Positions 1,616-57,336 of a stretch of DNA of 64,000 nucleotides are shown in pieces. Origin of the DNA: Acidobacteriota bacterium (GTDB taxonomy: Bacteria; Acidobacteriota; UBA890; WLXD01); NCBI GenBank assembly GCA_963666215.2, contig CAXWPL010000005.1, positions 1,408,001 through 1,472,000 of the forward strand, in the 5' to 3' direction. A program made the position numbers and the translations under genes. Numbering within the stretch: position 1 is the first letter of the stretch; each line of letters opens with the position of its first letter. The notes below the pieces were generated by a model, which ran no database searches, was not told the DNA's origin, and was given only the letters and a program-made list of their open reading frames with translations.

Positions 1616-2082
1616 GGGTAGGAAATCGCTTTTCTGAGCATGAGGAGCATGAGGGTTTTCGGAGGCCTGGGCGAGAGCTGGAGGTCCTGGGGGTCACTTC
1701 TCGGCGGCTCGACAGCAGGATTAGAGTGCGCGGGCCTGGCGGCAGGTGGGTCGCGAGAGTGCTTGGGGGCGTGCGCGGCAGCGGGGCCCCCAGGAGTCCC
1801 CGGAGGGGGGCCAGAGGAGTCGAGGGTCCCCCGGGAGCGTCAGGCGCTCTTTGTGTCGGCAGGGATGGGTGTCTCAGACAGGCTCATAGACCAGCTCGGG
1901 GGCTGGCGGTGGTCTCGGCGACCTGTGACGTGTCACCGGAGTGGGGAGCGCCGGGCAGCGTTTGAGTAGAATCCCCAGTACCTCACGAGCTGCTGCGAGG
2001 GGTCGGGAATGTGCTGTGCGGCCAGGAGAGCATGTTGTCCACCGTGTCAGCGTCGATCCGTCCCTTCTCGAGCAGCATCCTG
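1616..2082 (-). mobile_element. IS91/ISCR-like element piece 1 (oriIS end plus deleted transposase fragments)
   Basis: Starts GGGTAGGAAATCGCTTTTC, as do four other copies. Three internal deletions relative to the longer copies. Confidence 0.85.
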
Positions 2083-2572
2083 TCGCCATCACCGAAGCAG
2101 AGGCGGCCTCGGCCAATGCCGCCGTCGAGCGGGCCCGCGCCGCCCTGCGGCGGGCGGAGCTCGATCTCGAGTACACCCGGATCCTGGCCCTGTCGACGGC
2201 GTAGTCGCCCGCAAGAGCGTCGAGTCCGGGGAGATTCTGCACCCGGGCCAGGCGGTGCTCGCGGTGGTCGAGATCGACAACGTGTGGGCGGTCGCCAACT
2301 TCAAAGAGACTCAGCTCGAGCACATGCGGCGGGGCCAGCCGGCCAAGCTCAAGGTCGACGCCTACCCCGGCCACGGCTTCCGCGGCCACGTCGAGTCGAT
2401 CGGCGCCGCCACCAGCTCGAGCTTCACTCTGCTCCCGCCGGAGAATGCTCCAGGCAACTTCGTCAAGGTGGTGCAGAGAGTGCCGGTCGAGATCATTCTC
2501 GACGACCCTCCGGATCCCCAGCGACCGCTGCGCGCCGGGATGTCAGTGGTCGTCACCGTCTCGACCCGCTAG
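2083..2572 (+). pseudogene. HlyD/EmrA-family membrane fusion protein, C-terminal fragment with frameshift
   Basis: VWAVANFKETQLEHMRRGQPAKLKVDAYP...LLPPENAPGNFVKVVQRVPVEI. The N-terminus is replaced by an IS piece. Confidence 0.85.
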
Positions 2573-2615
2573 CCGCCGGTGGTAGGATTGGCGTTTATCA
2601 AGAAAGGGGACTTTT

Positions 2616-4427
2616 ATGCGAGTCGATTCGGGGCTCTTGCTCTGCTTTCTCTTCACTCTGCTTACCGGTGCTGCAGAGCAAGCCTCCGGCGCAGACCCGG
2701 ATCCGGCTGCGCGGAGCGCTCTCTTCGGCGATCTCCACATCCACACCACCTATTCCTTCGATGCGTTCATGAGTGGTGTGCGTACGACACCCGATCATGC
2801 CTACCGATACGCCAAGGGAGAGGCGATACCCAATACCGACGGCTCGTTCCGACTCTCGGGACCGCCTCTGGACTTTCTCGCGGTCTCCGAGCACGCCAAG
2901 TATCTGGGCTCACATGCTCGCGTGCTCGAGCCCGGCAGCGGGACCTACGACCACGTTGCGAAGGCTGAGCTCATTACCCGATCCGGCGGCACGTTCGTCA
3001 GAAGGGAGCGCTTCTATGAGCTGGTCGACGAGTACCCCGAGCTGATCGACAAGAAGCTCGTGGCCGGTACCTGGCAGAAGATCGTCGACGCCGCCGAGCG
3101 ACACAACGACCCCGGCACCTTCACCGCCTTCATCGGCTACGAGTACACGCCGAACCCCAGCGGAATGCATCTGCACCGCAACGTCATCTTCCGGGGTCAG
3201 GCACCGGAGCTGCCGTTCAGCTCGCTCGATTCTCCCAACCCCGAGGATCTGTGGAGCTGGCTCGACGACATGAGAGCGCAGGGCTTCGAAGCGCTGGCCA
3301 TCCCGCACAACACCAACCAGAGCAACGGCCAGGCGTTCCAGGAGCAGACCTTCGAGGGCGGGGTCATCGATGCCGGCTGGGCTGAACAGCGGATGCGCAA
3401 TGAGCCGCTGGCGGAGATCTCGCAGCAGAAGGGGACCTCGGAGACACATCCCTCGTTGTCGCCGAACGACGAGTGGGCCGAGTTTCAAATCGTTCGGTAC
3501 TACCTCAACAGAATCGAGAACAAAGATCCCATCTCCATATTCAAGGGCGGTTATCTCCGCGACGCTCTGAAGACGGGCCTGGAGATGGAAGAGAAGGACG
3601 GGTTCAATCCGTACAAGTTCGGCTTCATCGGATCGAGCGACAGCCATGTCGCCGCGGGGGCCTTCGAAGAGGACCGTCGCTTCTCGGGCGGCTCGAATAC
3701 CCCGCGGGGACGCGGATCGGCACCCGATGGTGACTCTTGGGAGGGGTTCTGGACGCCGCGTCAAGCCACCTTTGGTACCGGCGGCGTCGCCGGCGTCTGG
3801 GCCGACGAGAACACTCGCGCATCGATCTACGATGCCTTCCGCCGCAAAGAGACCTTCGGCACCTCCGGTAACCGCATCAAGGTCCGCCTCTTCGGCGGCT
3901 TCGACCTTCCTGCCGGGCTTCTCGGCGATCCGAGCCCCATCGCCACCGCCTATGAGAGCGGCACACCCATGGGCGGAGTCATCGAGCGCGGCTCCAACTC
4001 GGCGCCTAGTTTCCTGGTGTCGGCCATGCGAGACCCCAACGCCGGCTGGCTCGATCGGGCTCAGATCGTCAAAGGGTGGATCGAGGGCGGAGAGGCCAAG
4101 GAGCGGGTGTACGACGTGGCCTGCTCCGAAGGCCAGCGACCGGACCCCGGATCCCACCGCTGCCCGTCCAACGGCGCCAAGGTCAATCTCTCCGATTGCA
4201 GTGTGAGCCGGGACAAAGGATCGGTAGCTCTCGAGGCGATGTGGACCGACCCCGACTTCGATCCCGGCCAGCGGGCGTTCTACTACGTCCGGGTTCTCGA
4301 AAACCCATCCTGTCGTTGGTCGACCTGGGATGCTCTCAGGCTCGGAATCGAGCCGAACCCCGACCTGCCCGCGATCCACCAGGAGCGCGCCTGGAGCTCG
4401 CCGATCTGGTACGCGCCGCCGATATAG
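2616..4427 (+). CDS. DUF3604 (PHP-like) secreted protein
   Basis: Signal peptide, FGDLHIHTTYSFDA, HLHRNVIFR, C-terminal QERAWSSPIWY. Confidence 0.88.
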   Translation: MRVDSGLLLCFLFTLLTGAAEQASGADPDPAARSALFGDLHIHTTYSFDAFMSGVRTTPDHAYRYAKGEAIPNTDGSFRLSGPPLDFLAVSEHAKYLGSHARVLEPGSGTYDHVAKAELITRSGGTFVRRERFYELVDEYPELIDKKLVAGTWQKIVDAAERHNDPGTFTAFIGYEYTPNPSGMHLHRNVIFRGQAPELPFSSLDSPNPEDLWSWLDDMRAQGFEALAIPHNTNQSNGQAFQEQTFEGGVIDAGWAEQRMRNEPLAEISQQKGTSETHPSLSPNDEWAEFQIVRYYLNRIENKDPISIFKGGYLRDALKTGLEMEEKDGFNPYKFGFIGSSDSHVAAGAFEEDRRFSGGSNTPRGRGSAPDGDSWEGFWTPRQATFGTGGVAGVWADENTRASIYDAFRRKETFGTSGNRIKVRLFGGFDLPAGLLGDPSPIATAYESGTPMGGVIERGSNSAPSFLVSAMRDPNAGWLDRAQIVKGWIEGGEAKERVYDVACSEGQRPDPGSHRCPSNGAKVNLSDCSVSRDKGSVALEAMWTDPDFDPGQRAFYYVRVLENPSCRWSTWDALRLGIEPNPDLPAIHQERAWSSPIWYAPPI

Positions 4428-4532
4428 TGGCGTCGCGACTGGGCATGCGCTTGAACCAGAATTGCTGATATGACATATTTGGGTTTCTTCATAGCCGCGA
4501 CAACGCGCTAGCAGGAGGTTGGTGGAGTCGAC

Positions 4533-4649
4533 ATGACGGCAGCCAGGCTCGCCGAACGACGGGTGACCTTGGGCCTGTGTCTCCTTCTCTGCACGCAGGG
4601 TACGTCCTTCGCCGGGACCTTCACGGCCGCAACCGAGGCCCACATCGAC
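4533..4649 (+). pseudogene. Signal-peptide-bearing gene stub cut by the oriIS end
   Basis: RBS then MTAARLAERRVTLGLCLLLCTQGTSFAG..., ending at the ori junction. Confidence 0.5.
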
Positions 4650-5156
4650 GGGTAGGAAATCGCTTTTCTGAGCATGAGGAGCATGAGGGTTTTCGGAGGC
4701 CTGGGCGAGAGCTGGAGGTCCTGGGGGTCACTTCTCGGCGGCTCGACAGCAGGATTAGAGTGCGCGGGCCTGGCGGCAGGTGGGTTGCGAGAGTGCTTGG
4801 GGGCGTGCGCGGCAGCGGGGCCTCCAGGAGTCCCCGGAGGGGGGGCCAGAGGAGTCGAGGGTCCCCCGGGAGCGTCAGGCGCTCTTTGTGTCGGCAGGGA
4901 TGGGTGTCTCAGACAGGCTCATAGACCAGCTCGGGGGCTGGCGGTGAGTGAGCGAGGGGCTCCGGCTCTTGGGGTTCCGCCTGGATTCCCGCCAACAAGG
5001 TCCTCGGCGCACCCGTTTTCCGCGGTACGCGGGTCCCGGTCAAGAATCTCTTCGACTACCTGGAAGCTGGCAATCCACTCGAGAGGTTCCTAGATCACTT
5101 CCCAACGGTTTCGCGCGAGCAGGCGTTGGCGGCTTCTAGAAGAGGCAGCTGAAGGC
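4650..5156 (-). mobile_element. IS91-like piece 2 (oriIS end fused to DUF433 fragment)
   Basis: Matches the ori copies to 4998, then matches the DUF433 gene at ~36270-36426. Confidence 0.85.
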
Positions 5157-5695
5157 TTTTGGCGGCCTGACATCGTGGTGAGTAATGCCGGTATATTCGG
5201 CGCCGGTGAAACGATCGACACCTTGAACCAAAACAAATGGGACCTTGGGTTGAAAGTGAATCTTACCGGCGCACAACTGTTGCTCAAACATTCGATCCCT
5301 TATCTGAAGCAAGGCATCAATGCATCCGTTATCATCATGGGTTCACGAAACGTAAACGCCCCGGCCCGGGCGCGGCCGCCTATTCCGTTCCCAAAGCCGG
5401 TTTAACCCAATTGGCCCGGGTGGCCGCACTTGAACTGGCCGGCGACGGCATACGCGTAAACGTCATTCATCCCGACGCCGTTTTCGACACCGCCTTATGG
5501 ACCCCGGAGGCCCTCGCCCGTTCCGCCGAGCGATACAGCATGACGGTGGAGGAATATAAACGCAAAAATTTAATGAAAACCGAAATCACCTCCAAGGATG
5601 TTGGCCGGATAGTGGCTGCGGTAGCCGGCCCCGTTTTCTCCGAAACGACCGGCGCCCAACTACCGATCGACGGCGGCAACGACCGGATTATTTGA
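5157..5695 (+). pseudogene. SDR oxidoreductase C-terminal fragment (RhaD-like bifunctional aldolase/SDR), frameshifted
   Basis: DIVVSNAGIF...AAAYSVPKAGLTQLARVAALELAGDGIRVNVIHPDAVFDTALW...PIDGGNDRII, split over two frames. Confidence 0.8.
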
Positions 5696-5723
5696 CATTT
5701 CCCCCACTCGCTCGACAGGAGAA

Positions 5724-5785
5724 ATCCCAATCGGAGTTGGGATCCACGCAGAGGGTAAAATGCAGGTCCCAACTCCGATTGGGAC
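5724..5785. repeat. Inverted REP-like doublet
   Basis: ATCCCAATCGGAGTTGGGATCCAC (5724-5747) and its near reverse complement GCAGGTCCCAACTCCGATTGGGAC (5762-5785), each a hairpin. Confidence 0.6.
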
Positions 5786-5798
5786 TTGAAAGGGAAAT

Positions 5799-7316
5799 GT
5801 GAAAAGCACCTTGATCTTCAATATCTGCCTCTTCTTTTATGCTTACCTCATTGCGCCGGTTTTTGCCGCCAAACAACCCAACATCGTGGTTTTTCTCGTT
5901 GACGACATGGGCGTCATGGATACCTCGGTTCCGTTCATGGCCGACGCAAAAGGTCAACCGGAACGACATCCGCTCAACAATCTGTATCGCACGCCCAACA
6001 TGGCTCGCCTGGCCAGGCAGGGAATTCGTTTTCGCCAATTCTATGCCAACAGTGTCTGCTCACCCACCCGGGTCTCGATTATGACCGGCCAAACATCGGC
6101 GCGACATCGCACCACCCAATACATTAAACCGGAATCGAACAACGCCGGAACGTATGGCCCGAAAGATTGGCAATGGGAGGGGATCACCGCTAAACACCAA
6201 ACCCTCCCTGCCCTTCTCCGTAAGGGTGGATACCGCACCATTCATGCCGGGAAAGCCCACTTCGGGTCAAACAACTCCTTTGGCGCGTTGCCTCAAAACT
6301 TTGGTTTCGATGTCAACATAGCCGGGCGCGCTATTGGACTGCCGGGCAGTTATTATGGAACCGATGATTTTACTCGTTTCGAGAACGGCAAGGCATTTCG
6401 ACCCGTCCCGGGTCTGGAAAAATACCACGGCCAGGATATGTTCCTCACCGAAGCCCTCACCCTGGAGATGAACGCCGAAATCAAGCGGGCCGTGGACGAG
6501 AAGAAACCGTTCTTTGCTTACATGTCACACTATGCCGTACATTCACCCTTCCAGTCGGACAAACGATTTGCCGCCCATTACGCGGATACACCCGAGTTGA
6601 GTAAGCAGGCCAAGGCCTTTGCCACTATGATTGAAGGCATGGACAAATCACTCGGAGATATTCTCGACCAACTGGAACGATTGGGAGTTGCGGAGAATAC
6701 GTTGGTCTTCTTCCTGGGTGACAACGGGACCGACGCGCCACTCGGTGCTTCCCATGGGATTGTCTGCGCGGCACCCTTACGAGGTAAAAAGGCAACCCAT
6801 TACGAAGGCGGCCTGCGGGTTCCATTCATCGCCGCCTGGGCGAAACCGAATCCGAAGAAAGCCGTGCAGAAAAAACTCCCGATCCCGGCCAACCTGCTCT
6901 CCGATCAAGTCGGAAGGATTTATGATCTGTTTCCAACCATTCTCAACTTGACCGGGATCAAATACGAAGGCTCGATCGATGGCGTCGATCTGTCTTCACT
7001 ACTCACCGGGGCAAAATCAAAGCAGACGCCCACCTTCCTGATGCATTTCCCCCACAGCCATCGCAGCAGTTACTTCACCGCTTATCGGGAGGGAGACTGG
7101 AAATTGATCTATCACTACCACAAACCGAAAACACAACGTTACCAGCTATTCAATCTGGTCCAGGACCGCAGCGAATCGAAAAACCTGGCCAAAAGCCAAC
7201 CGAAACAGCTTCGCCGGATGATCGAAGCCATGACCTCCGCCCTGACAGATGCCGATGCGCAGTATCCGGTGTCGAAACAAGATTCCAAGATTGTTTTAAA
7301 ACCAATGATCGAGTAG
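5799..7316 (+). CDS. Sulfatase (secreted)
   Basis: PNIVVFLVDDMG, CSPTR formylglycine motif, GYRTIHAGKAH. Visibly lower GC and different codon usage than the neighbours. Confidence 0.92.
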   Translation: MKSTLIFNICLFFYAYLIAPVFAAKQPNIVVFLVDDMGVMDTSVPFMADAKGQPERHPLNNLYRTPNMARLARQGIRFRQFYANSVCSPTRVSIMTGQTSARHRTTQYIKPESNNAGTYGPKDWQWEGITAKHQTLPALLRKGGYRTIHAGKAHFGSNNSFGALPQNFGFDVNIAGRAIGLPGSYYGTDDFTRFENGKAFRPVPGLEKYHGQDMFLTEALTLEMNAEIKRAVDEKKPFFAYMSHYAVHSPFQSDKRFAAHYADTPELSKQAKAFATMIEGMDKSLGDILDQLERLGVAENTLVFFLGDNGTDAPLGASHGIVCAAPLRGKKATHYEGGLRVPFIAAWAKPNPKKAVQKKLPIPANLLSDQVGRIYDLFPTILNLTGIKYEGSIDGVDLSSLLTGAKSKQTPTFLMHFPHSHRSSYFTAYREGDWKLIYHYHKPKTQRYQLFNLVQDRSESKNLAKSQPKQLRRMIEAMTSALTDADAQYPVSKQDSKIVLKPMIE

Positions 7317-7324
7317 CCGAGTTG

Positions 7325-7349
7325 GATGCCCCGCCGTGGGGCACACTAC
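7325..7349 (-). repeat. GTAG-type REP-like palindrome
   Basis: Minus strand GTAG-TG-TGCCCC-ACGGC-GGGGCA just after the sulfatase stop. Confidence 0.45.
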
Positions 7350-7385
7350 AACGTATCCAGAGGGCTCACCACACCCAGGGGCCTA

Positions 7386-7997
7386 GCGCAGCAGGCGAGC
7401 CCAGCTGATGCTCCGCCGCCGGGTTCCTAGATCACTTCCCAACGGTTTCGCGCGAGCAGGCGTTGGCGGCTCTAGCAGAGGCAGCTGAAGGCCTTATCCG
7501 CAATTGCGACTGCTTCTCGATGAATCGGTTCCTCGGCAGCCTTGCGCGAGCTGGATGCTGATCGTGGAATCGGATCCGAGAGTCCGCGGTAGGCTTAGGA
7601 CATGGAAGCTGCGTCTGATACCTGGCAGGACTTCATTGCTGTCGATCCAGCGATATGCCACGGACGGGCCTGCATACGGGGTACCCGCGTCATGGTGTCT
7701 GTGATCCTAGACAACTTGGCTGCGGGACTATCGGCGGAAGAGATCCGAGCCAGCTACCCGACGGTGAGCAAGCAGGCTCTTCAGGCCGTTATGGGCTATG
7801 CGGCCGACCTGGCACGGGAGCGCATCGTTGACATCTCGTCGTAGAGGCCCGTGGTGAGGCTCAAGGTCGACGAGAACCTCCCCGTCGAGATTGCTCAGAG
7901 TCTCGGTGAATCCGGCTATGACGCTCAGACGGTCCCGGACGAGGGCGGCGCAGAGGACGAAACCATCAGCGCCCGCTGCTTGGCTGAAGATCGCGCC
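7386..7997. mobile_element. Backbone piece 3: 39-bp transposase fragment joined to the DUF433/DUF5615 cluster
   Basis: 7386-7424 matches ~35378-35416, then it matches ~36357-36890. Confidence 0.8.
7602..7844 (+). CDS. DUF433 family antitoxin
   Basis: IAVDPAICHGRACIRGTRVMVSVILDNLAAGLSAEEIRASYP. Near-identical to 36535-36777. Confidence 0.85.
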   Translation: MEAASDTWQDFIAVDPAICHGRACIRGTRVMVSVILDNLAAGLSAEEIRASYPTVSKQALQAVMGYAADLARERIVDISS

Positions 7998-8024
7998 CGC
8001 TCTCGGGTAGAGTAGACTCAGATC

Positions 8025-10589
8025 GTGCTTCGGACCGTGAAAGCCGAGATTGCAACCATCCTTCTTGCCCTCGTTCTCGCTCTTCCCGTGTCGGGTTACG
8101 ACCTCTCGCCGGAGCTGCGTCAGCGGGTCGATCGACTGATCGCCGACATAGAAGCTACCCCGACCACGGCCACAAACGCCGTTGAACGGGTAGCCATCCT
8201 TTGGGACTGGGCCAACGCCGTCTCTCTGCAGGGGGCAGTGGTGCCGAAGAACCTGCCGAAGATCGCTTTCGGCATCCCGTACCCCATCCCAGGGCTCCAG
8301 ACCTCTCTCCGGCAAATCAAGGCAGTCGATACCTATGCTCGCTATCTCGCCACGATCGAACGGGACCCCGGGGCGTTCGGAGAGGTCTCTGTCGAGCCTG
8401 CGTCCGCCGTACACGCCGGCTCCTGGCAAACCGTCCGCGTGGTGTGGAAGGTCGGCAGTTTTGGACTACCCGAGGGCGGCGGTGTGGTGGCCAGCCAGCA
8501 CTATGCCGGCGGTTATGGCCGGCTCCAGGTCGACGACCCTGACGGTGACAACTACGTCTCGGCTACGACCAGCAACCCGGCAGTCCGCTTCGAGCTCGAT
8601 CGGGCTGCGGTGTGGGGTTCTTACGGCGGTTTTCGAGGGCCAGAAAGCTTCCCCATGTTTCGCGTGCGCGGCGGTGCGCTGCGGGCCGGAGATACCGTCG
8701 CCGTGGTCTACGGCGATCGCTCTGGGGGCGGTCGGGGGCTCGAGATCGGGATCTTCTCCAACGACGCCATCGCGCTGCCCCTGCTCGTCGATGCGGGTAA
8801 CGGTGATCTCCACGAGCTGCCGCTTCCGACCTTCGAGGTCGTCGGTGGCGAGGCCTACGGAGTGCACGGTTTCGCCCCGTCGATCGTAGCTAGCGGAGAG
8901 GAGCTCACGATCTCGGTGCGCAGCGAAGATCGTTTTTACAATCGGGCAACGGAAAAGATCCCGGGCTATGAGGTCCTGCGCGACGGCGAGAAGATCGCCG
9001 ATCTCCCCGCCGGTCAGGCGCTTCATGATCTGCCGCTGCGCTTCGCCGAGCCGGGCGTAGCCCGCGTTTCGTTTCGCAGCCCCGACGGCAAGATCGTAGG
9101 TTCCGCCAACCCGATCTGGGTCCGCGATCGCCCCGTCGAACGGATCTATTGGGGCGAGACCCACGGTCATTGTGGCTTTGCCGAGGGTCAGGGGACTCCC
9201 GAGGGCTACTTCGCCTTCGCCCGCGACGACGCTCGGCTCGACTTCGTCACCTTGAGCGAGCACGACCTCACCATCACCGATGGTCATTGGAAGTATCTCA
9301 ACGACGCGGCTGAGCAGTTCCACCGCGAGGGCGAGCTCATCGTCTTCCCCGGCTACGAGTGGTCGGTCAATCGCCAGCGAGGTGGGCATCACAACGTTTT
9401 CTTTCGTGGTCCGGGATTCGATCGTGTCGCGGGACACGAAGCGCCGGATCTGACCATGCTCTATCGGGGGTTGCGTGAGAAGCACGATCCCGAGGATGTC
9501 CTGATCATCCCGCACGCCCACCAGAACGGGGACTTCCGACTTTCGGATCTCGGCATGGAGCGCCTGATCGAGATCATGTCGGGGCACGGCACCTTCGAGT
9601 GGTTTGGGCAGCGCTACCTCGAGCATGGTTACCGTGTCGGCTTTGTCGGAGCTTCGGACGACCATAGAGGACACCCCGGATACTCGCCCGGTCATCAGTC
9701 GACGGCCGGCGTTCGTTCCAACATCTTCCAGTTTGGGGGCCTCGCTGGTGCCTGGGCACCGGCGAAAAGCACCGATGCGGTGTTTGACGCTCTGAAGGCG
9801 AGACGCGCGGTCGCTACCACCGGCGCCCAGCGGATCATTCTCGACGCTCGCCTCAACGGCGGTGCGATCGGCAGTGAGCTGGCGCAGTCCGAGACGAGAG
9901 AGGTCGAGGGTCGGGCCATCGGCACCGGTCCGATCCGTACCATCGAGCTGCTCAGAAACGGCGAGGCGGTGGGGAGCTATGACACCGGGGAAGCAGCGGC
10001 GGCAGAGGCGCCTGCCGGCGAGGTTATCGTGCGCTTCTACTCCGAGTCCTACGTGACCATTCGAGACAACCCGCGCGGCCAGCACACCTGGCGCGGCAGC
10101 CTGCGGGTCGAGAACGGTCGACTCCTCGGTGCCCGCTACCTCGGCACCCCCCACCGCGATTCCGACCAACTCGAGATCGAAGGTGATGAGCTGCGCTTCG
10201 ACCTCGCCACCCGCGGGTCGAGCCGTGCCATCGCCCTCACCCTCGAGGGCGCTTCGGCCTCGACCCGCCTTGCCTTCGATCTCGATGCGGTTCGCGAGCG
10301 CGGCACGGCGCCGACGCAGGTGCGGACTCCGCAAGAGTTTCCGGCCACGACGTTTTCGCTGGTCGTTCCCACCGCCGAACGAGTGCCGAACGAAGAGGTT
10401 CTCGAGGCTGGCCGCTACCGCGATCGAGTCAGCGTCGAACGGGCGGCAGGCTTCCGCGACGACGTCGAGTTCAGCTTTTCCGATCGCGGAGGTCAGCCGG
10501 GAGATTGGTACTACGTCCGCGTCGAGCAGGTGGATGGCCATCTGGCCTGGTCGAGCCCCTGGTGGGTCGGAGGCGAGCCTCCTCGTTGA
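8025..10589 (+). CDS. Large DUF3604/PHP-like secreted protein
   Basis: IYWGETHGHCGFAEG, LDFVTLSEHD, GGHHNVFFR, GASDDH, C-terminal WYYVRVEQVDGHLAWSSPWWV. Confidence 0.8.
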   Translation: MLRTVKAEIATILLALVLALPVSGYDLSPELRQRVDRLIADIEATPTTATNAVERVAILWDWANAVSLQGAVVPKNLPKIAFGIPYPIPGLQTSLRQIKAVDTYARYLATIERDPGAFGEVSVEPASAVHAGSWQTVRVVWKVGSFGLPEGGGVVASQHYAGGYGRLQVDDPDGDNYVSATTSNPAVRFELDRAAVWGSYGGFRGPESFPMFRVRGGALRAGDTVAVVYGDRSGGGRGLEIGIFSNDAIALPLLVDAGNGDLHELPLPTFEVVGGEAYGVHGFAPSIVASGEELTISVRSEDRFYNRATEKIPGYEVLRDGEKIADLPAGQALHDLPLRFAEPGVARVSFRSPDGKIVGSANPIWVRDRPVERIYWGETHGHCGFAEGQGTPEGYFAFARDDARLDFVTLSEHDLTITDGHWKYLNDAAEQFHREGELIVFPGYEWSVNRQRGGHHNVFFRGPGFDRVAGHEAPDLTMLYRGLREKHDPEDVLIIPHAHQNGDFRLSDLGMERLIEIMSGHGTFEWFGQRYLEHGYRVGFVGASDDHRGHPGYSPGHQSTAGVRSNIFQFGGLAGAWAPAKSTDAVFDALKARRAVATTGAQRIILDARLNGGAIGSELAQSETREVEGRAIGTGPIRTIELLRNGEAVGSYDTGEAAAAEAPAGEVIVRFYSESYVTIRDNPRGQHTWRGSLRVENGRLLGARYLGTPHRDSDQLEIEGDELRFDLATRGSSRAIALTLEGASASTRLAFDLDAVRERGTAPTQVRTPQEFPATTFSLVVPTAERVPNEEVLEAGRYRDRVSVERAAGFRDDVEFSFSDRGGQPGDWYYVRVEQVDGHLAWSSPWWVGGEPPR

Positions 10590-10654
10590 CGTCGATCAGC
10601 CTGGCCGCGTACTGGCTGGCGTCATGTTTTGGCTTGCAAGGGCTCGTCGCCAAC

Positions 10655-11027
10655 GGGTAGGAAATCGCTTTTCTGAGCATGAGGAGCATGAGGGTTTTCG
10701 GAGGCCTGGGCGAGAGCTGGAGGTCCTGGGGGTCACTTCTCGGCGGCTCGACAGCAGGATTCGAGTGCGCGGGCCTGGCGGCAGGTGGGTCGCGAGAGTG
10801 CTTGGGGGGCGTGCGCGGCAGCGGGGCCCCCCGGGAGTCCCCGGAGGGGGGCCAGAGGAGTCGAGGGTCCCCCGGGAGCGTCAGGCGCTCTTTGTGTCGG
10901 CAGGGATGGGTGTCTCAGACAGGCTCATAGACCAGCTCGGGGGCTGGCGGTGAGTGAGCGAGGGGCTCCGGCTCTTGGGGTTCCGCCTGGATTCCCGCCA
11001 ACAACCTGCGGATGGAAGAGAGCTTGG
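10655..11027 (-). mobile_element. IS91-like piece 4 (oriIS end plus transposase C-terminal tail)
   Basis: Same ori sequence. Encodes KLSSIRRLLAGIQAEPQEPEPLAHSPPAPELVYEPV*. Confidence 0.85.
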
Positions 11028-11121
11028 GGACGTCGACCTCGCTGAGGCGCGCAAGCGCCTCAGCCACCAGGAATCGCTCGTTGTAGACGGGGACGATGAC
11101 GCTGAGCGTCGCGCTGTCCAC
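11028..11121 (-). pseudogene. Glycosyltransferase family 2 N-terminal stub
   Basis: MDSATLSVIVPVYNERFLVAEALARL, fused in frame to the transposase tail. Confidence 0.7.
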
Positions 11122-14965: not shown

Positions 14966-15307
14966 GTGTCGCTGCGGGGCGGCTCTACACGCCAGACTCA
15001 CGGATCGCTGCGCTGCTGGTCACCTCATCTCGGGCAACACCACCAGGCGCGCCGTAACCTCGTCGAGGCAGTCCTCGCCGACGCCGGCCACAGCAACACA
15101 GACGCACCGCGGGCTCTCGAACTAGCTGCCGACGGGTTGGCCCAGGCGGTTCTGGTTCGGGACAGCGCATATCAGCGCCTGGTCGAAGCAGGCGGCCCGA
15201 TGACCTCCAGCGGGCGCACTCGCCGCGTGTTCCAAGTCTGGCTTCAGGCCGCGGATAGGGTCGACAAGCACGTACGCCTCGTCGGCTTGAAGCGGGTGCC
15301 GCGGAGC
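14966..15307 (+). pseudogene. Hypothetical protein fragment cut by an IS piece
   Basis: Coding-like frame (RRNLVEAVLADAG...VRLVGLKRVPR) that runs into piece 5. Confidence 0.35.
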
Positions 15308-15809
15308 TGCCCCGGGCAGCGTTTGAGTAGAATCCCCAGTACCTCACGAGCTGCTGCGAGGGGTCGGGAATGTGCTGGGTGAGACGGGCGATGAAGTCCA
15401 GGACATCCCAGCGGGCCACAGTGCCGTAGGGGCTGGCCGTGCGCCGCGGCCGCGCCGAGTAGACGGCCTCTCCGCTCTCAGCATCCCACTCCAGACGGGC
15501 GAGGACGAGGGGGCAACGAATCATGGTTCGGCCGAGTCGTACCGCGCCCTGGCGGTCCTCAGCCCGCACCGAGCCGTGGGTCCACAAGCCGCTGTGCGGC
15601 CAGGAGAGCATGTTGTTCACCGTGTCAGCGTCGATCCGTCCCTTCTCGAGCAGCATCCTGAGCACCTCGGCTCGGAAGAGGCGCTCCACCTTCTCAGCGT
15701 CGAAGTAGAGAAGGTGTCGAAAGGTCCCGTCAGGGAGCCAGGCACCATCGGCCATCAGGACGTGGATATGTGGGTGAAATCGCAACAGCTCCCCGGACGT
15801 CTGGATGAA
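15308..15809 (-). mobile_element. IS91-like piece 5 (transposase HUH region)
   Basis: FIQTSGELLRFHPHIHVLMADG...LDFIARLTQHIPDPSQQLVRYWGFYSN, IS91-family transposase motifs. Confidence 0.9.
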
Positions 15810-16018
15810 GCCGTCGGATCTCCCGATGAGCTTGGCCAGATGCGCACGATCGCGAAAGAAGTGCTCCCTCGTCTTCGGGGGATCTCCCCAGCCTAGGGTC
15901 TTCTGCTGGGACCTCAGAGAGAGGATGTCCCTTCTGGCAGTAGCCCGGCGCCCTACGAGTGGGCGCCTCAGTTGCGGAGAAAGGGTGTAGACTGTGACGC
16001 AACCCGGGAGGATCCACG

Positions 16019-36777: not shown

Positions 36778-36920
36778 AGGCCCGTGGTGAGGTTCAAGGT
36801 CGACGAGAACCTCCCCGTCGAGATTGCTCAGAGTCTCGGTGAATCCGGCTATGACGCTCAGACGGTCCCGGACGAGGGACTTTGCGGCGCAGACGGACAG
36901 ACGACGGCCCAAGCACGACT

Positions 36921-37810: not shown

Positions 37811-37875
37811 CTCTAAATAGTTAATAACAAGCGACTTAGTATCGATCTCGATGCTCCGCGAATAATCGGCTGGCA

Positions 37876-39910
37876 GTGCGACACGAAGGAGGAATCTGAT
37901 GACCTGATCGAAAGACAGAGATAGGAGACCTCTGGGTCTCGAAGGCCGGCGGGTGAAAGTCCCGCCCGGGGAGTTGTCGGTACACCCCGGTAGCCGCCGG
38001 AGCAGTCGATGCGGGTGACCGTCCGGCTGAAGCCTCCGGAACAGCTGGAGTAAGTCCAGTGGGCAAAGGTGCAGGCCGCAACGCGAGTGAACCCTGAGAA
38101 GGCCCCGAAAGTTACTTGCTGGAGCCGACCCTCCTGCCATAAGGGGAAGGCCGCCGCTCGACGGAGGAGCAACCGACCGTTGAATCCGCCGAATCCAGCC
38201 GGGGTAGTGGGGGTGGCATGTACCGAAGGTCTTTGAGGCAACGTGTGAGACCCACGTCGGTGGCGGGTTGCGACCGCCAACCGGGAAGGCGTAAAAGGTC
38301 GTTCTCGGGCCGTTGTGGGAGTCGGAGGGGCTTGTATTACTGAGGAAGCCGGGTAACTCCGGTGAAGGGAAGGAGCCCTAGTTCTGGTGCGCTTTGGAAG
38401 GAGAAGGAGACCGGGATTGACGCAAAGTCTAGGACCCGAACGAGTCGAGCGACTCCGGAAGAAGCTGTGTGACAAGGCCAAGCGAGAGCCCGACTTTCGC
38501 TTCTACACCCTGTACGACAAGGTCTGCTGGCCCGAGACCCTATCTGTGGCCTACGCCCGCGCGAAAGCCAACCGGGGAGGCCCGGGAGTGGACGGAGTCC
38601 GGTTCGAGGAGATCGAGTCGTATGGGGTCGAGCGATGGCTGGGAGAGCTCCGAGAGGAGCTGGTAGAGGAAAGCTACCGTCCGCAACCGGTGCGGCGGGT
38701 GAAGATTAGGAAGCCCGGCGGCGGAGAGCGTGCGCTCGGGATCCCGACGATTCGGGATCGAGTGGCGCAAACCGCCGCAGTGCTGATCCTCGAGCCGATC
38801 TTCGAGGCCGATTTTGAAGAGAACGTGTATGGGTATCGACCGAAGCGGAGCGCCCATGATGCGCTAGCTGCCGTACGAGACGGTTTGTACGAGGGCCAGG
38901 CCCACGTCGTCGACGCCGACATCGCCCAGTACTTTGACACGATTCCCCATGGGGATTTGCTGAAGTCGGTGGCGCGTCGGATCGCCGATGGGAAGATCCT
39001 GCGACTCTTGAAGCTGTGGCTGAAGTCTCCAGTGGACGAGCAAGATGGCTCGGGTCGCTGGCGACGGACAGGCGGCAAGAAGAGGAAGCGGGGGATTCCG
39101 CAGGGTGGGGTGGTCTCACCCCTCCTGGCCAACATCTACATCAACCGGCTCGTGCGTCACTGGCGCAACTCAGGCGCCTCGAAACGCCTAGGTCAGATCG
39201 TCTCTTACGCCGATGATTTCGTCATCCTGTGCAGGAGCGAGGCGCAGGCTCGCGAGAGCTTGGATCTCGTCTCTCACTGGCTGACAAAGCTCGGCTTAGC
39301 GATTCACCCGGACAAGACCCGCCTGTGCGGGGTGTGGGAGGAGTCGTTCGACTTTCTGGGGTACACCTTCAGATCGCATCGACGCTTCCGCACCGGCCAG
39401 CGGATCTTGACTGCGAACCCTTCGAAGAAGGCCCAGAAATGGCTCCGTTTCCCGCCGCCTCTCATCGAACCGTGCTTGCGGTTCTCCCGCACACGGCTCC
39501 CGGACTGGCTTCACGACGAGGCATGCGCGAGTCGACCCTTTCGATCCCGGTACTGCTTGATGTCGAGGACTGCGGCTGAGCCGTAGACCTCGGAGGCAGA
39601 AAACCGGGCGACTCCTTGCGATTGGAGTTTGTGTCGTCGACAGAGGAATCGTCGGGCACGTCTCGCGACATGCCACCAGACGGCGCGATCCGCAGCTGCC
39701 GTCCATCCGAAGCTGAAGTAGTTGGCCCATCCCATCAAAAGACGGTTCAGCTGCAGACGCAGCTCGGGCCAGGGCTCCGGGTTCCCCCGATACAGCAGGG
39801 CGTTGACCTTCTCCTGGAGCCATGGTCAGGAGATTGAGGCACTCGCAAACGAAAGGGCGAGAAAACAGATGGGCCTGACCTACAGCCACCGCGCCCGCCG
39901 TCGACTCCAC
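37876..39910 (+). mobile_element. Group II intron with internal inversion
   Basis: 5' GTGCG at 37876, RT ORF, 3' end ACTCCAC at 39910. Domain V (GAGCCGTGTGCGGGAGAACCGCAAGCACGGTTC) lies on the minus strand. Confidence 0.9.
38387..39823 (+). pseudogene. ltrA: Group II intron reverse transcriptase/maturase, maturase domain inverted
   Basis: RALGIPTIRDR, GYRPKRSAHDA, PQGGVVSPLLANIY, YADD, FDFLGY. GWANYF domain X is on the opposite strand (39511-39823). Confidence 0.9.
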
Positions 39911-39935
39911 CCTAGGGGCAGCCGGAGGCTGCCGG

Positions 39936-40368
39936 GCTGCTGCGAGGGGTCGGGAATGTGCTGGGTGAGACGGGCGATGAAGTCCAGGACATCCCAGCGG
40001 GCCACAGTGCCGTAGGGGCTGGCCGTGCGCCGCGGCCGCGCCGAGTAGACGACCTCTCCGCTCTCAGCATCCCACTCCAGACGGTCGAGGACGAGGGGGC
40101 AACGAATCATGTATCGGCCGAGTCGTACCGCGCCCTGGCGGTCCTCAGCCCGCACCGAGCCGGTGGTCTCGGCGACCTGTGACGTGTCACCGGAGTCGGG
40201 AGCGCGGCGGCGCTTGCCCCGGGCAGCGTTTGAGTAGAATCCCCAGTACCTCACGAGCTGCTGCGAGGGGTCGGGAATGTGCTGGGTGAGACGGGCGATG
40301 AAGTCCAGGACATCCCAGCGGGCCACAGTGCCGTAGGGGCTGGCCGTGCGCCGCGGCCGCGCCGAGTA
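39936..40368 (-). mobile_element. IS91-like piece 8 (two overlapping transposase fragments)
   Basis: Matches piece 5 to ~40162, then jumps back and repeats part of the gene. Carries RLGRYMIRCP. Confidence 0.88.
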
Positions 40369-47414: not shown

Positions 47415-47418
47415 GTGC

Positions 47419-52303: not shown

Positions 52304-52659
52304 CGCCGAGTAGACGACCTCTCCGCTCTCAGCATCCCACTCCAGACGGTCGAGGACGAGGGGGCAACGAATCATGGTTCGGCCGAGTCGTACCGCGCCC
52401 TGGCGGTCCTCAGCCCGCACCGAGCCGTGGGTCCACAAGCCGCTGTGCGGCCGGAGAGCATGTTGTTCACCGTGTCAGCGTCGATCCGTCCCTTCTCGAG
52501 CAGCATCCTGAGCACCTCGGCTCGGAAGAGGCGCTCCACCTTCTGGGCGTCGAAGTAGAGAAGGTGTCGAAAGGTCCCGTCAGGGAGCCAGGCGCCATCG
52601 GCCATCAGGACGTGGATATGTGGGTGAAATCGCAACAGCTCCCCGGACGTCTGGATGAA
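52304..52659 (-). mobile_element. IS91-like piece 9 (HUH region)
   Basis: RFHPHIHVLMADG. Ends at the same base as piece 5. Confidence 0.88.
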
Positions 52660-53448: not shown

Positions 53449-54945
53449 ATGAAACCAGGGAATCGGGTCCTGGCCCGAACCGTGCCGACCCGCACACGAC
53501 TGGCTTTCGGGGTCGGCGCCGCGGCCGAGAACATGTCGCTCTACTCGCTGTCGATCCTCGGCCTGCTGTTCTACAACCAGGTGCTTGGACTGGACGTGCT
53601 ATTGGCGGGCCTGGTGCCCACGATTGCCCTGCTGACCGACGCCATCTCGGATCCTCTGTTCGGCTCGTTCTCGGATCGTTATCGCTCCAAACGATGGGGG
53701 CGGCGTCATCCGTTCATGCTGATCTCGCCGATACCCATCGCGCTCAGCTTCTTCTGCGTCTTCAACCCACCGGACGACCTGACGCCAAACCAGCTCTTCG
53801 GGTGGTTCCTCATCTGGTCCATCAGCCTGCGGACGTTCATGACCGTGTACCACGTGCCTCACCTGGCGATGGGCGGCGAGCTGTCGAGCCGCTACATCGA
53901 ACGCTCCCGCATCATGAGCTACAACAACTTCTTCTCCTGGTTTGGTGGTGCCGGGTTGTTCAAGCTGAACACGGTCGTCTTCTTCGCTTCGGTGGCCGTG
54001 GCAACCAACGGACTCTTGAATCGCGACGCCTACCCGGCGTTCTCGATCGCGATGGCGGTCTTCATCCTGGTCGTTCTTTTCAGCTCTGCCTGGTTCACCA
54101 TAGACCGGATTCCGACGCTGCCGCAGGCACCGGAGGATCTGGACGGGTTTTCGATACGCGCATTCGGTCGCGACGTCGCTTCCGCCTTCTCGAACCGCAA
54201 CTACCGGATGCTGATGATCGCCTTCTTCGCCCTGTCGCTGATGCTCGGCCTGCGCCTGGCGCTCACCAACTACATGAACATCTTCTACTGGGAGCTACGG
54301 TCGGAGGACATCGGCACCTTGCTTTTCACCGGATCGTTCATCGGCTATGTCACCGGGTTCATGTTGACGGCGCGTTTGCACACCCGCTTCGACAAGCGGC
54401 GTACCATCGTGCTCACCGCGCTCGGACTATCGGTCTTCCCGGCAATACCGGTGGTCCTCCGATTGATGGGCACGTTTCCGGAAAACGGCTCGCCTTGGCT
54501 GCTGTGGGCGATCGCCGGATTCCAGGCCCTTTCGTCCGGCTCCGGCAGCATTCTGAACATCAGCGTCATGTCGGCGTTGGCGGACATCGCGGACGAGAAC
54601 GAGGTTCGCATCGGTCATCGACAGGAGGGCACGCTCTATGCCGCGCGGACGTTCTTCGCCAAGCTCGACAACTCACTCGGCCAGGGGATCGCCGCCTTGT
54701 CGCTGGCGATCATCGGCTTTCCGAAGAACGCGCAGCCGGGCGCGGTCGATGCCGACACCATCTACTGGCTGGGCTTGATCGAGTCGCCTCTCTCGATCGT
54801 TCCGGGTCTCATAGCCGCGTGTTTCTACGCCCAGTACCGCATCAACCGAAAGCAGTACGAGGACACGCGTCAGCAGCTCGATGAGATACACGCGCGACGC
54901 GCCACGGATGTGTCCCGTTTTTTGTGGAAATGGGTTCAGGCGTAG
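53449..54945 (+). CDS. MFS transporter (GPH/MFS_2), copy 2, last codons replaced by IS256
   Basis: Close paralog of 21210-22667. The original end (RATG*) lies beyond the IS at 56270-56284. Confidence 0.9.
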   Translation: MKPGNRVLARTVPTRTRLAFGVGAAAENMSLYSLSILGLLFYNQVLGLDVLLAGLVPTIALLTDAISDPLFGSFSDRYRSKRWGRRHPFMLISPIPIALSFFCVFNPPDDLTPNQLFGWFLIWSISLRTFMTVYHVPHLAMGGELSSRYIERSRIMSYNNFFSWFGGAGLFKLNTVVFFASVAVATNGLLNRDAYPAFSIAMAVFILVVLFSSAWFTIDRIPTLPQAPEDLDGFSIRAFGRDVASAFSNRNYRMLMIAFFALSLMLGLRLALTNYMNIFYWELRSEDIGTLLFTGSFIGYVTGFMLTARLHTRFDKRRTIVLTALGLSVFPAIPVVLRLMGTFPENGSPWLLWAIAGFQALSSGSGSILNISVMSALADIADENEVRIGHRQEGTLYAARTFFAKLDNSLGQGIAALSLAIIGFPKNAQPGAVDADTIYWLGLIESPLSIVPGLIAACFYAQYRINRKQYEDTRQQLDEIHARRATDVSRFLWKWVQA

Positions 54946-56269
54946 TCCTCCGAGTCGTCTTTTGCTAAATCCTACCGTTTACGCGGCCCTCTCAACCTCG
55001 AGCAGGAGCTGAAGCGCCCGGTAGCCGTTAATCCTTCGCAGGTGTATCTGCCCGAAGGCGACGAGCCCCCAGAGGAGCGTGACGCCGGCAGCCTCGGTGG
55101 CAAAGGAGCCCTGGGTTTTAGTGCGGCGACGAAACTCGCGGTTCAGGTTCTCCAGAGCGTTGGTCGTGCGCACCGAACTCCACAGCGATTTGGGGAGCTC
55201 GTAGAAGGTCAGTAGCTGGAACCCTGCCTCCTCAAGGCTGCGAGCCACCGCCGGGACTAGTCGCGACCACTTGGTGACGAACGCCGCGTAGGCCTTGCGG
55301 GCCTGTGCCGCGTCCTCGGCTCGTACGATCGAGTGCCAGTCACGCCGCAGCTCGTCGTGTGCGTGCACCGGGCAGTGTTTCTTCAGATTCTCCCACTTGT
55401 GTTGGACGCAGCGCTGGACTTTGACCTCAGGCCAAGCCTTCAGCGCCGCGGCCAGCCCTTTGTGGCCATCCGTGACCAGGTAGCGCGGAGCCTGAAGACC
55501 TCGGGCCTTCAGATCCTCGATCAGCCACTTCCAGTGCTCGGCGGCCTCGCTCGCGGCTAAACGTAAGGCCACCAGCACCTTGGTGCCGTCCGGAGTCACA
55601 CCCAGCACCACCAGCACCGGTACCGAGACCACTCGACGGGCCAAGCGGACCTTCAGGTGAAAGCCATCGAGAAACAGAAGCACGTAGGACTCCTCCGACA
55701 GATCGCGCTCACTCCAGCGAGCAAAAAGCTCCTTCAGCCGAGACACCACACGCGAAACTGCGCTCTTGGACAGGTGCTCCTCACCCAGCAGCGGAGCCAA
55801 TGCCTTCTTGATCCGGCGGCTGTTAGCGCCAGCCAGATACGCACCCAGGATCGCGTCATCGACCTCCTGCGTACGACGAGCGTAACGCGGCACGATCGCA
55901 CTGCGAAACTCTACGCTGGCCCCATCCTCGCCGACTAGCCGTCCTCGTGGAATGTCCAGTTCCTTCGACCCACACGCCGTCGTGATCAGACGACGCTGCT
56001 TGCCGTTGCGATAGCCCGCACGCTCGCCTGAACGCTCGTAGGCGCTGCAGCCCAGCGCCTCGGACAGCTCTTCCTCGAGTGTGATCTCGATCGCCGCACG
56101 AACACGCTCGCGTAACAACGAACGAATGTCCTGACGGAAGCGTGCAGCTTCCCCTTCCTCGTTGATATTCTCCACCATGGCGTAATCCTCCGTTCGCCCT
56201 AACCGGCGATGTGTTTGACCACTAGGAGGTTACGCCATTCTCAATTTCCACAGCATTCGGGACGGATCC
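54906..56269 (-). mobile_element. IS256-family element, intact
   Basis: Imperfect IRs GGATGTGTCCCG...GTGGAAAT and ATTTCCAC...CGGGACGGATCC. 8-bp TSD CGCGCCAC (54898-54905, 56270-56277). Confidence 0.93.
54979..56178 (-). CDS. IS256-family (mutator) transposase
   Basis: GYRNG, LFLDG, VTDGHKGL, VQRCVQHK, RTTNALENLNREFRRRTK. Confidence 0.95.
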   Translation of the reverse strand: MVENINEEGEAARFRQDIRSLLRERVRAAIEITLEEELSEALGCSAYERSGERAGYRNGKQRRLITTACGSKELDIPRGRLVGEDGASVEFRSAIVPRYARRTQEVDDAILGAYLAGANSRRIKKALAPLLGEEHLSKSAVSRVVSRLKELFARWSERDLSEESYVLLFLDGFHLKVRLARRVVSVPVLVVLGVTPDGTKVLVALRLAASEAAEHWKWLIEDLKARGLQAPRYLVTDGHKGLAAALKAWPEVKVQRCVQHKWENLKKHCPVHAHDELRRDWHSIVRAEDAAQARKAYAAFVTKWSRLVPAVARSLEEAGFQLLTFYELPKSLWSSVRTTNALENLNREFRRRTKTQGSFATEAAGVTLLWGLVAFGQIHLRRINGYRALQLLLEVERAA

Positions 56270-56300
56270 CGCGCCACTGGCTAGCTATAGCTATAGCTAG

Positions 56301-56900
56301 GGTACTGTCAGGTTGAGCCTGTTGGTGGCAGAGTGCGCCCATGAAGAGCAGCACACTCAGCTACCGCGGCTATCGGTTCCCGCCCGAGATCATCGCCCAC
56401 GCAGTCTGGCTCTACCCTCGCTTCTGTCTGAGCCTTCGGGACGTCGAAGATCTCCTCGCGGAGCGCGGAATCACTGTCTCTCACGAGACCATCCGCCAAT
56501 GGTGCCGGAAGTTCGGCACCGAGTACGCACGGAAGCTGAAGCGGCGGGGAGGCAGACTGGGCGACACGTGGTTCTTGGACGAGCTCTTCGTGACCATTCA
56601 GGGCAAGAGGCAGTACGCCAACAACCGAGCCGAAGTCTCCCACCAGCCGACCCGGCAACGAGAGCGACAGATGCGCCGCTTCAAATCACCCGGCCAAGCG
56701 CAGCGATTCCTGTCCGCTCACGGAGCCATCCAGAACCTGTTCCGCGTTGGGCGGACCTGGTCAGCTCCGCAAACCACCGAGTTCTACGAGATCGCTCCTT
56801 CGGTGTCTGGCGACAGGAGACGTGTGCCTCCTGAGTCCGAGTCGAACCAACCTTCGACAACGCCGGAGCTCGCCTCGACCAAGGCCAAGTTGACAGTGCC
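56301..56900 (+). mobile_element. IS6-family element with internal deletion
   Basis: IRs GGTACTGTCA and TGACAGTGCC. The transposase (YRFPPEII...WFLDE...GKRQY) jumps directly to ANNRAEVSHQPTR, so the central catalytic segment is missing. Confidence 0.88.
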
Positions 56901-56961
56901 GCACTAACCCTTCAGGAGCGCGCTTACTCCTCTCCGATCTGGTTGATACCGCGATAAGGAG

Positions 56962-57336
56962 CGGCTCGAAACGATCTTCGTAGACCTGGGGAGGAAGCGC
57001 TCGAAGTGGTGTGTCAAGGCGCGGTACGCCACGCTCCGCTCCGGCCGCCGCCGGCGATAGACCTGGCTGTGAGCCGCCTCTGCCATTGCCTCCCGTCGAA
57101 GACAAGAGACGGAAAGCGGCGCTCAGATCTGGCACCGATCGCACCTAATGCTCTTCCGCCCCGAGCTCGGCTTCCGCTCGAACCTCGCTGGGGAACGACC
57201 GTGGGCGGTAGCTTTCCCCCGGCTGCTGCAGCTGAGTTCAACGCTGCGTGCCTTGATACGATCGGTCCATGAGGGTCTCAGGAACACCCAGCGTCATTCA
57301 TTCGGATCCTGAGATCCTCGGTGGCGCACCCGTTTT
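56962..57336. mobile_element. Backbone piece 10 (transposase 5' end, upstream region, DUF433 start)
   Basis: Near-identical to ~35918-36291. Confidence 0.88.

Follow-up and report, generated by a model that had tools for sequence, protein, structure and literature searches.

Introduction

ISCR elements, such as ISCR1 and ISCR2 of resistance islands, occur as co-oriented truncated copies with cargo between them, and the idea of an "integron without integrase" has already been proposed for them. They have been put forward as gene-capture systems. Eukaryotic Helitrons, for their part, encode a Rep-helicase fusion. Work on Helitrons (PMC4778049) describes HUH rolling-circle transposition, gene capture by reading past the end of the element, and many non-autonomous copies. 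For IS801, two studies (PMC3189936, PMC6354349) report that one-ended transposition generates miniature fragments carrying the ori end and mobilizes neighboring DNA; they ascribe most of the genomic fragments of this element to reorganization, the pieces being substrates for recombination, and describe on the plasmid p1448A-A eight ori801 sequences alongside toxin-antitoxin genes. For IS91 itself, PMC13181058 gives one-ended transposition at 1-10% and no target duplication. Here, we analyze a stretch of 64,000 nucleotides (the window) from a probable Acidobacteriota genome (GenBank assembly GCA_963666215.2, contig CAXWPL010000005.1, hereafter C5, positions 1,408,001 to 1,472,000), in which remnants of an IS91-like element, the backbone, are interspersed with blocks of other genes, the cargo. 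A first-pass annotation of its letters had read it as a Helitron-like gene-capture array that acts like an integron. We describe the ori end that its remnants share and argue that the locus is probably a decayed array of the ISCR/IS801 kind.

A Co-Oriented Array of IS91-Family Remnants

The genome is metagenome-assembled (4.65 Mb in 5 contigs, 92% complete, 2.97% contamination). Positions are those of the window and continue past its ends, with negative numbers on the left side and, above 64,000, numbers marked "+" on the right side. We searched for the backbone with three queries taken from the window: K1 (34926-35515), which holds the ori end and the transposase C-terminus; K2 (15319-15809), the transposase core; and K3 (35621-36898), which takes in the transposase N-terminus with the upstream region, both DUF433 domains, and a DUF5615 stub. 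Over the complete genome, these queries gave 27 matches, all on the + strand of C5 between 1384862 and 1496741, which correspond to 17 backbone pieces over ~112 kb (C5 1.385-1.497 Mb). Ten pieces lie inside the window, the array extends beyond both of its ends, and this search found no piece elsewhere in the 4.65-Mb genome. A single shared orientation for 17 pieces has a chance of 2^-16. The annotation had listed ten pieces in the same orientation, near-identical where they overlap, and the self-comparison of the window agrees: each of the ten is found at most 10 nt from where it had been placed, all ten are direct, as are all 27 genome-wide matches, and the overlapping parts are 95-100% identical, except for two short indel-rich stretches at 82-88%. 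Pieces scattered over the genome in random orientation, which the annotation had named as the picture that would speak against it, are not seen, the only cluster being that of C5 on the + strand.

On the strength of sequence comparison, the element is assigned to the IS91 family by four features, i.e., the Zn/Y2 domains, the HUH and YxxxY motifs, the ori end, and the target tetranucleotide, in keeping with what had been proposed for the backbone. The Pfam scans, which took in 60 open reading frames (ORFs) of the window, recovered fragments of Zn_Tnp_IS91 and Y2_Tnp on the minus strand, with PF04986 and PF14319 above cut-offs. The other backbone parts named by the annotation, DUF433 and DUF5615, likewise have their Pfam matches in the pieces, and a sharp ori end is present. 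The best full-length homolog, P0001, is 438 amino acids long and 84% identical; among 67 homologs, those of ~410-450 amino acids carry both domains and many shorter ones carry Y2_Tnp only. In the fragment 15318-15809, alignable with 14 homologs, stand HPHIH and YWGFY, which we take to be the HUH motif and the paired catalytic tyrosines (YxxxY). This fragment and that of 35460-35771, both on the minus strand, read GRTMIRCP, where the homologs have GRYMIRCP (13 of 14) or GHYMIRCP (1 of 14), i.e., a tyrosine in 14 of 14.

All copies are dead, each with its own deletions. The rest of the genome, to which the annotation had pointed as a possible home of an intact transposase, holds none in its 92%-complete form: tblastn with P0001 returned 16 fragments, which leave residues 96-167 uncovered throughout. 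From the pieces, we estimate the intact element at ~1.75 kb, with the transposase on the minus strand and the ori at the plus-strand left. The exact 26-nt pattern of the ori end had 0 matches in metagenome contigs, and among the relatives that a protein-based metagenome scan returned, none exceeded 66% identity and none had the ori motif.

The Ori End and Its Target Rule

The nine ori-bearing remnants all start at one identical nucleotide (GGGTAGGAAATCG...), which lies ~260 nt beyond the stop codon of the transposase. NNAC precedes each of these nine ends, while the flanks upstream are mutually unrelated. The same boundary and the same rule were found for three of three ori copies in G031, the 6.8-Mb chromosome of a Thermoanaerobaculia metagenome-assembled genome (MAG) that was reached via locus L020. 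Before the 12 ori ends stand GGAC (four times), CGAC (three times), AGAC (twice), CAAC, ACAC, and GTAC; on the transposase strand, the flank is 5'-GTNN at 12 of 12, mostly GTCC or GTCG. In a relative whose protein is 60% identical, two copies (L018 and L019) have a near-identical terminal sequence followed by GT. According to PMC13181058, IS91-family insertions adjoin a tetranucleotide whose second base is T, and the target is not duplicated. With one ori nucleotide and NNAC beside nine different sequences, the transposase must have made at least nine separate site-specific joints. Such joints require transposase cleavage, either at insertion or at the closure of a one-ended transposition product, and it is here, at an exact boundary repeated nine times out of nine beside unrelated flanks ending in NNAC, that the HUH activity claimed by the annotation is borne out.

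In the IS91 family, the termini have no inverted repeats, and the window self-comparison revealed none involving the backbone. No copy has both ends beside one target. The other features of an IS91-like terminus are fainter. The subterminal region of the ori has two 4-bp stems near the end, with an energy no better than that of shuffles (z = 0.6). For the far (ter) end, the sole candidate lies 175 nt upstream of the start codon, as a right boundary common to +86541 here and locus L132 of G031, whose flanks differ; it is unlike the left end of L018/L019, and its folding energy is no better than that of shuffled sequence.

Reality of the Joints and Breakpoints on the Cargo Side

Six runs from two studies contain 73-89% of a test stretch. 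Three of these six runs and one small-share run were placed on 1000-17000, X15, X16, and X17 representing three samples from two studies. A single 2311-nt k-mer contig (5105-7415; X15, X16) bridges the joints 5159/5160 and 7381/7382; in the same kind of contigs, joint 11032/11033 is bridged in X15, X16, and X17 and joint 15297/15298 in X16 and X17, in every case with 0 mismatches. At three further joints, one side has a contig cover of just 26-30 nt. Only repeat or paralog bins were covered by run X1 and the remaining small-share runs. The annotation had named unsupported joints and coverage steps as the marks of a chimera; four joints are bridged and the depth is even over unique cargo. The tested joints are real, on the evidence of contigs, not raw long reads, and one of the samples may be the assembly's own source.

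On the cargo side, three of the 31 right-hand breakpoints end at GAGTA, including the deletion in the copy at 34926. GAGTA has only two distinct sites in the 2.36-kb backbone, a third listed occurrence falling in the stretch common to K1 and K2, and the binomial value for 2 of 31 breakpoints is 0.003 for a motif picked after the data were seen, which makes the coincidence suggestive at most. A common motif at the backbone-to-cargo joints was tried and rejected: 28 of 31 lack any, no NNAC/GTNN rule applies to them, and GAGTA itself is post hoc. Most of these joints look like ordinary illegitimate deletion or recombination. Of the mechanism that the annotation had offered, HUH nicking plus illegitimate repair that captures foreign fragments, the first part agrees with the site-specific ori joints, and capture into the interior is not shown. 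The breakpoints at or beside GAGTA (35505-35515, 23162-23167, 40364-40368, and, outside the window, +86529..+86541) adjoin a GC-rich palindrome containing GCGGCCGC, which could be a pseudo-termination site of the transposase or merely a fragile hairpin.

A Mobilome Shared with a Distant Genome

The IS91-like element is also carried by G031, at 96-99% nucleotide identity and in 13 scattered fragments of both orientations, none of them intact, whereas the acyl-CoA carboxylase (ACC) gene of the window is only 65-67% identical to its closest matches there. One ori stub of G031 has 2 differences in 200 positions from two copies of the window's array, fewer than there are between most copies of that array. 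For the IS30-like element, G031 has at least 14 full-length matches rounding to 100% and one partial match at 99%; for the IS256 element, 11 copies rounding to 100%; and the group II intron is 99.7-100% identical. The identity of the IS256 copies, despite a housekeeping gene at ~66%, points to a very recent exchange of mobile elements.

Several cargo blocks have homologs in G031 at 77-98%, collinear with G031 loci. The block 2083-4646 corresponds at 77% to G031:5182260-5184835, in a match that spans 2082-4650 and ends at most 4 nt from both backbone joints; 8060-10589 corresponds to G031:1539836-1542365 at 87%; and a glyoxalase stub (1283-1612) corresponds to G031:6206566-6206895 at 98%. The G031 glyoxalase gene has 39 more codons, which are absent from the genome of the window, and the break falls at an ori joint. 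Set against the 65-67% of ACC, the range of 77-98% upholds the view that the cargo comprises foreign fragments with cut edge genes. DUF3604 has 66 matches in G031, spread genome-wide, and in this respect G031 resembles a donor pool for the family. Judging from these identities, the element, other mobile elements, and chromosomal fragments have moved between distant lineages.

Origin of the Array

We favor, with the reserve that a probable but far from certain reading calls for, a decayed array of the ISCR/IS801 kind that would have been imported in part and reshaped later on. Rolling-circle insertions in one orientation and one-ended transposition would make the array grow; in the latter, replication from the ori would pass the far end and take neighboring DNA along, as for IS91, IS801, and ISCR. 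Part of the array would have arrived by horizontal transfer. Deletions, recombination between homologous pieces, and segmental duplications would later have eroded and reshuffled it, and insertions of IS30, IS256, and the group II intron would have reshaped it further. The present array would be an inert scar, unless a transposase came in trans. Several points weigh against this account. The textbook outcome of one-ended transposition, an entire element with cargo behind it, is not seen in any unit, and each copy needs an extra deletion. Only two of the eight ori stubs show at their end the GTNN-like tetranucleotide that premature termination would be expected to leave, and the far (ter) end is undefined. 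A simple insertion is not demonstrated, since at the one joint where the other half of the interrupted gene was sought, that of glyoxalase, it was not found. The order of events cannot be reconstructed because the flanks are too repeat-rich for synteny; when the 20-kb flanks at C5 1.34 and 1.52 Mb were compared with relatives, multi-copy elements accounted for all matches. The element has no match in 10 genomes of the same family and 20 further relatives, save weak ones of 71-81% in three, and an intact transposase could sit in the part missing from the 92%-complete genome.

The annotation had placed the cargo inside single backbone copies. By such Helitron-like internal capture, a template switch or illegitimate repair would put foreign fragments between the ori and the far end, to be moved in trans. 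Its best illustration lies outside the window, in the unit +84147..+86541, which joins an ori stub (backbone 9-208), a complete DUF3604 gene, and a part of the region upstream of the transposase, from backbone 1637. The right boundary of this unit recurs in a cargo-free G031 derivative with different DNA beyond, its DUF3604-to-backbone joint is also preserved in a remnant at 56906-56962, another unit, -17133..-14224, resembles it, and the three breakpoints exactly at GAGTA, post hoc as the motif is, fit such a process. However, the order of the backbone pieces, which was to prove one interrupted copy, does not stand as proof: six of the eight transitions into non-ori pieces ascend, in line with the runs that the annotation had noticed, but 10.7% of 100,000 permutations of the 17 pieces equal this (p = 0.107), ascending order being common by chance because short ori stubs precede most non-ori pieces. 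Moreover, neighbors overlap. The pieces that flank the cargo 5160-7381 share backbone 2018-2090 (73 nt) and differ in their internal deletions, with 359 joined to 1939 in one and 491 joined to 2018 in the other; those that flank the cargo 40369-52303 share backbone 725-854 (130 nt). Given the overlaps and the different deletions, these flanking pieces are therefore separate copies. Likewise, 28 of the 31 right joints lack a common motif, neither this genome nor G031 has an intact transposase, and no cargo-carrying unit turned up a second time between different flanks. We hold internal capture to be distinctly improbable, and it is not demonstrated here; the array is not a Helitron, as the homologs have no helicase domain. 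Just as doubtful is the idea that the ori stubs are working handles and that units like +84147..+86541 are, or were, non-autonomous cassettes moved between co-resident bacteria. In this reading, the transposase would be encoded elsewhere in the community and the locus would be a one-way accretion array, the bacterial counterpart of gene-carrying non-autonomous Helitrons.

The exchange with G031 can also be read without any part for the transposase in the capture of cargo. Shared pieces of the element would then serve as recombination patches for the import of foreign DNA, either through a double crossover or with homology at one end and an illegitimate joint at the other. G031 shares the element at 96-99%, IS30 at 99-100%, IS256 at 100%, and the intron at 99.7-100% despite an ACC gene at 65-67%; its closest ori stub is only 2 of 200 positions off two copies here; the cargo blocks are collinear with its loci; and short backbone duplications stand on both sides of two cargo blocks. 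The authors of PMC3189936 interpreted IS801 fragments in a similar way. Recombination, however, cannot set nine sequences at one ori nucleotide, each ending in the target tetranucleotide; this takes site-specific cleavage, though some joints may stem from the donor, and we regard homology-anchored import as an unlikely explanation of the whole. It is still harder to credit an assembly artifact, in which a shared repeat would have led the assembler from one strain variant or genome into another; we consider this very improbable. The genome is a MAG, and the runs do show joints that are absent from the assembly, e.g., 4998 to 15554, a junction seen in G031; from these extra joints it follows that related genomes co-occur in the samples. 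Yet, the contigs of X15, X16, and X17 bridge the four joints with 0 mismatches, depth is even over unique cargo, and piece-specific breakpoints are not expected from repeat collapse. The joint contigs do not reach long-range order across the 300-390-nt repeats.

The Remnants and Other Features of the Zone

The ten remnants of the window lie on the minus strand and differ in what they retain. Remnant 1 (1612..2082; 1613-2082 in the self-comparison) carries the target GGAC (1612-1615), the ori end, and C-terminal pieces of the transposase, as backbone segments 8-307, 504-584, 591-649, and 863-932 separated by three internal deletions. Remnant 2 (4646..5159; from 4647 in the self-comparison) joins the ori end (backbone 8-359), through a 7-nt filler, to backbone 1939-2090 with the first DUF433. 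Remnant 3 (7382..8052) is without the ori end and fuses backbone 449-491 to 2018-2559 and beyond, with an intact DUF433 (7602-7844) and a DUF5615 stub (7851-8015) recognized by Pfam. Remnants 4 and 6 are ori stubs: the former (10652..11032; from 10653 in the self-comparison) holds backbone 9-387 with CAAC before it, the latter (22933..23167; from 22927) backbone 8-221 plus 22 nt (713-734), ending in GAGTAG. Remnant 5 (15298..15813) is the transposase core, with Y2_Tnp, covering residues 168-335 of P0001 including HPHIH and YWGFY. The longest copy, remnant 7 (34932..36898; from 34926), runs from the ori end and the transposase C-terminus (35195-35548) through a deletion to the N-terminus with its Zn finger (35620-35751 and 35868-36041); beyond it come the upstream region, two DUF433 domains, and a DUF5615 stub that breaks off at 36898. 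Remnant 8 (39933..40368) consists of scrambled or duplicated transposase pieces (backbone 619-854, 509-584, and 591-733) and ends in GAGTA. Remnant 9 (52304..52659) keeps transposase residues 169-287 (backbone 725-1081), and remnant 10 (56962..57336) covers backbone 1580-1952, with the N-terminus of the transposase (32 amino acids), the region upstream, and the beginning of DUF433; directly before it lies a 56-nt remnant of a DUF3604 3' end (56906-56961).

As delimited by Pfam, the Y2_Tnp fragments lie at 14985-15785, 39880-40326, and 52372-52635 and Zn_Tnp_IS91 at 35620-35751, all on the minus strand; the two DUF433 domains of remnant 7 are at 36224-36409 and 36535-36777, and its DUF5615 stub is at 36784-36924. 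The longest copy alone has an insertion of ~135 nt (35735-35869) that interrupts the N-terminus of the transposase; the other copies here and those of G031 are without it, and a relative of this insertion, 85% identical, is found in G031 locus L133 at 9709-9776.

Cargo blocks on the plus strand include 2083..4646, with an HlyD stub (2009-2572) and an intact DUF3604 gene (2616-4427); 5160..7381, with an SDR stub (5237-5695) and an intact sulfatase (5799-7316); and the single-gene block 8053..10651, with a divergent DUF3604-like gene (8025). The glyoxalase stub cut at the ori joint (1283..1612) is on the plus strand as well. The GC content of 5001-7000, in the SDR-stub/sulfatase block, is 54-55% against ~64% elsewhere, which suggests a donor more distant than for the other blocks. 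Of the truncated edge genes announced by the annotation, HlyD, SDR, the Na/Ca antiporter (12235-13092), M28 (19303-19701), and the TonB receptor (40377-40580) are confirmed by Pfam, and the hydrolase stub is weakly supported, at 51864-52229. Intact DUF3604 genes were recognized at 2616, 41513, and 47661, next to the divergent one at 8025; the remaining cargo comprises PQQ dehydrogenases, sulfatases, NHL proteins, a TonB-dependent receptor, two MFS transporters, an acyl-CoA carboxylase, and DUF1800 and DUF1501 proteins. All seven full-length DUF3604 genes of the genome are in the zone and 0 elsewhere. Outside the window, the zone has DUF3604 genes at -26381, +84258, +93038, and +102525. The DUF3604 genes are on the plus strand wherever the strand was checked, and their mutual protein identity is 42-74%.

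Other mobile elements share the zone. An IS30-like insertion sequence (IS) with HTH_38 and rve occupies 1..1290 on the minus strand (in full, -661..1290), and together with an inverted copy at +90451..+92394, 99.8% identical, it brackets most of the array. A group II intron (37861..39930, plus strand, its 3' end approximate) lies beside remnant 8, with RNA domains at 37947-38086 and the reverse transcriptase at 38387-39586; the minus strand of 54905..56270 carries an IS of the IS256 family (Mutator), and an IS6 fragment occurs in the zone as well. Three segmental duplications were seen: the PQQ-dehydrogenase and Rieske block 32479..34863 (minus strand) has a direct duplicate at 49517-51880 (96% identical), a PQQ dehydrogenase at 12724-14730 has one outside the window at -19829..-17822 (direct, 99%), and an MFS transporter is duplicated in inverted orientation (21220-22811 and 53302-54896, 91%). 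At 60899-62850, on the minus strand, two overlapping ORFs make up one PQQ dehydrogenase, the first matching profile positions 1-303 and the second 301-595, which is likely a frameshift or a pseudogene. No tRNA gene was found in the window.

Mobile elements abound well beyond the IS91 array, which belongs to a much larger zone of this kind. Outside the window, three copies of a 3.4-kb repeat are 100% identical (C5 1321568, 1364678, and 1525712), and many further multi-copy elements lie on C5 between 1.32 and 1.56 Mb. The GC skew changes sign near C5 1.25-1.3 Mb. A replication-strand bias behind the single orientation was considered and set aside, as the skew is near zero at the island and at seven G031 loci and is uninformative.

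Comparison with Known Systems

The annotation had likened the locus to an integron with no integrase or attC. None of the 60 ORFs covered by the Pfam scans encodes a tyrosine recombinase (no search for attC sites was made), so the array is not an integron; the idea itself is that already proposed for ISCR. Unlike Helitrons, the homologs of the transposase carry only Zn_Tnp_IS91 and Y2_Tnp. With IS91 (PMC13181058), the element shares the architecture of the transposase, an ori downstream of tnpA, and a target tetranucleotide with T in second position. It differs from IS91 in that no orf121-like upstream gene was seen here, in its target, which is 5'-GTNN and not CTTG or GTTC, and in its weak terminal hairpins. 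The 12 natural ori joints define a target rule, 5'-GTNN, for an uncharacterized relative of IS91.

The likeness to ISCR lies in an IS91-like element with a sharp oriIS boundary beside variable captured DNA. In contrast to the ISCR elements of resistance islands, no resistance gene was seen among the 60 scanned ORFs. Some copies here, of the variant running into DUF433, may have lost the far end. The closest documented precedent, IS801 in the virulence plasmids of Pseudomonas syringae, likewise has many truncated copies that retain the ori beside adaptive genes, with toxin-antitoxin genes nearby in both. In contrast to IS801, the array described here is chromosomal, in a probable Acidobacteriota (Thermoanaerobaculia) genome; it consists of 17 pieces in one orientation over ~112 kb with no intact copy; and its cargo is metabolic (DUF3604, PQQ dehydrogenases, sulfatases, and TonB receptors) instead of virulence genes.

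No new mechanism is established by these results. IS91-type gene accretion would not be limited to the resistance and virulence plasmids of Proteobacteria, and here it appears to have helped assemble a chromosomal zone in which all DUF3604 genes of the genome are gathered, along with paralogous dehydrogenases, with sulfatases, and with transporters; a distantly related genome has much of the same DNA. The locus is also a clear example of a shared mobilome that moves metabolic genes between community members. In conclusion, the array works like the gene-accreting arrays of ISCR and IS801, a pattern already known from other bacteria. Its novelty lies in the lineage of its host, in its size, with 17 co-oriented remnants spread over ~112 kb, in cargo of a metabolic kind, and in clear evidence that a distant genome shares its mobilome.

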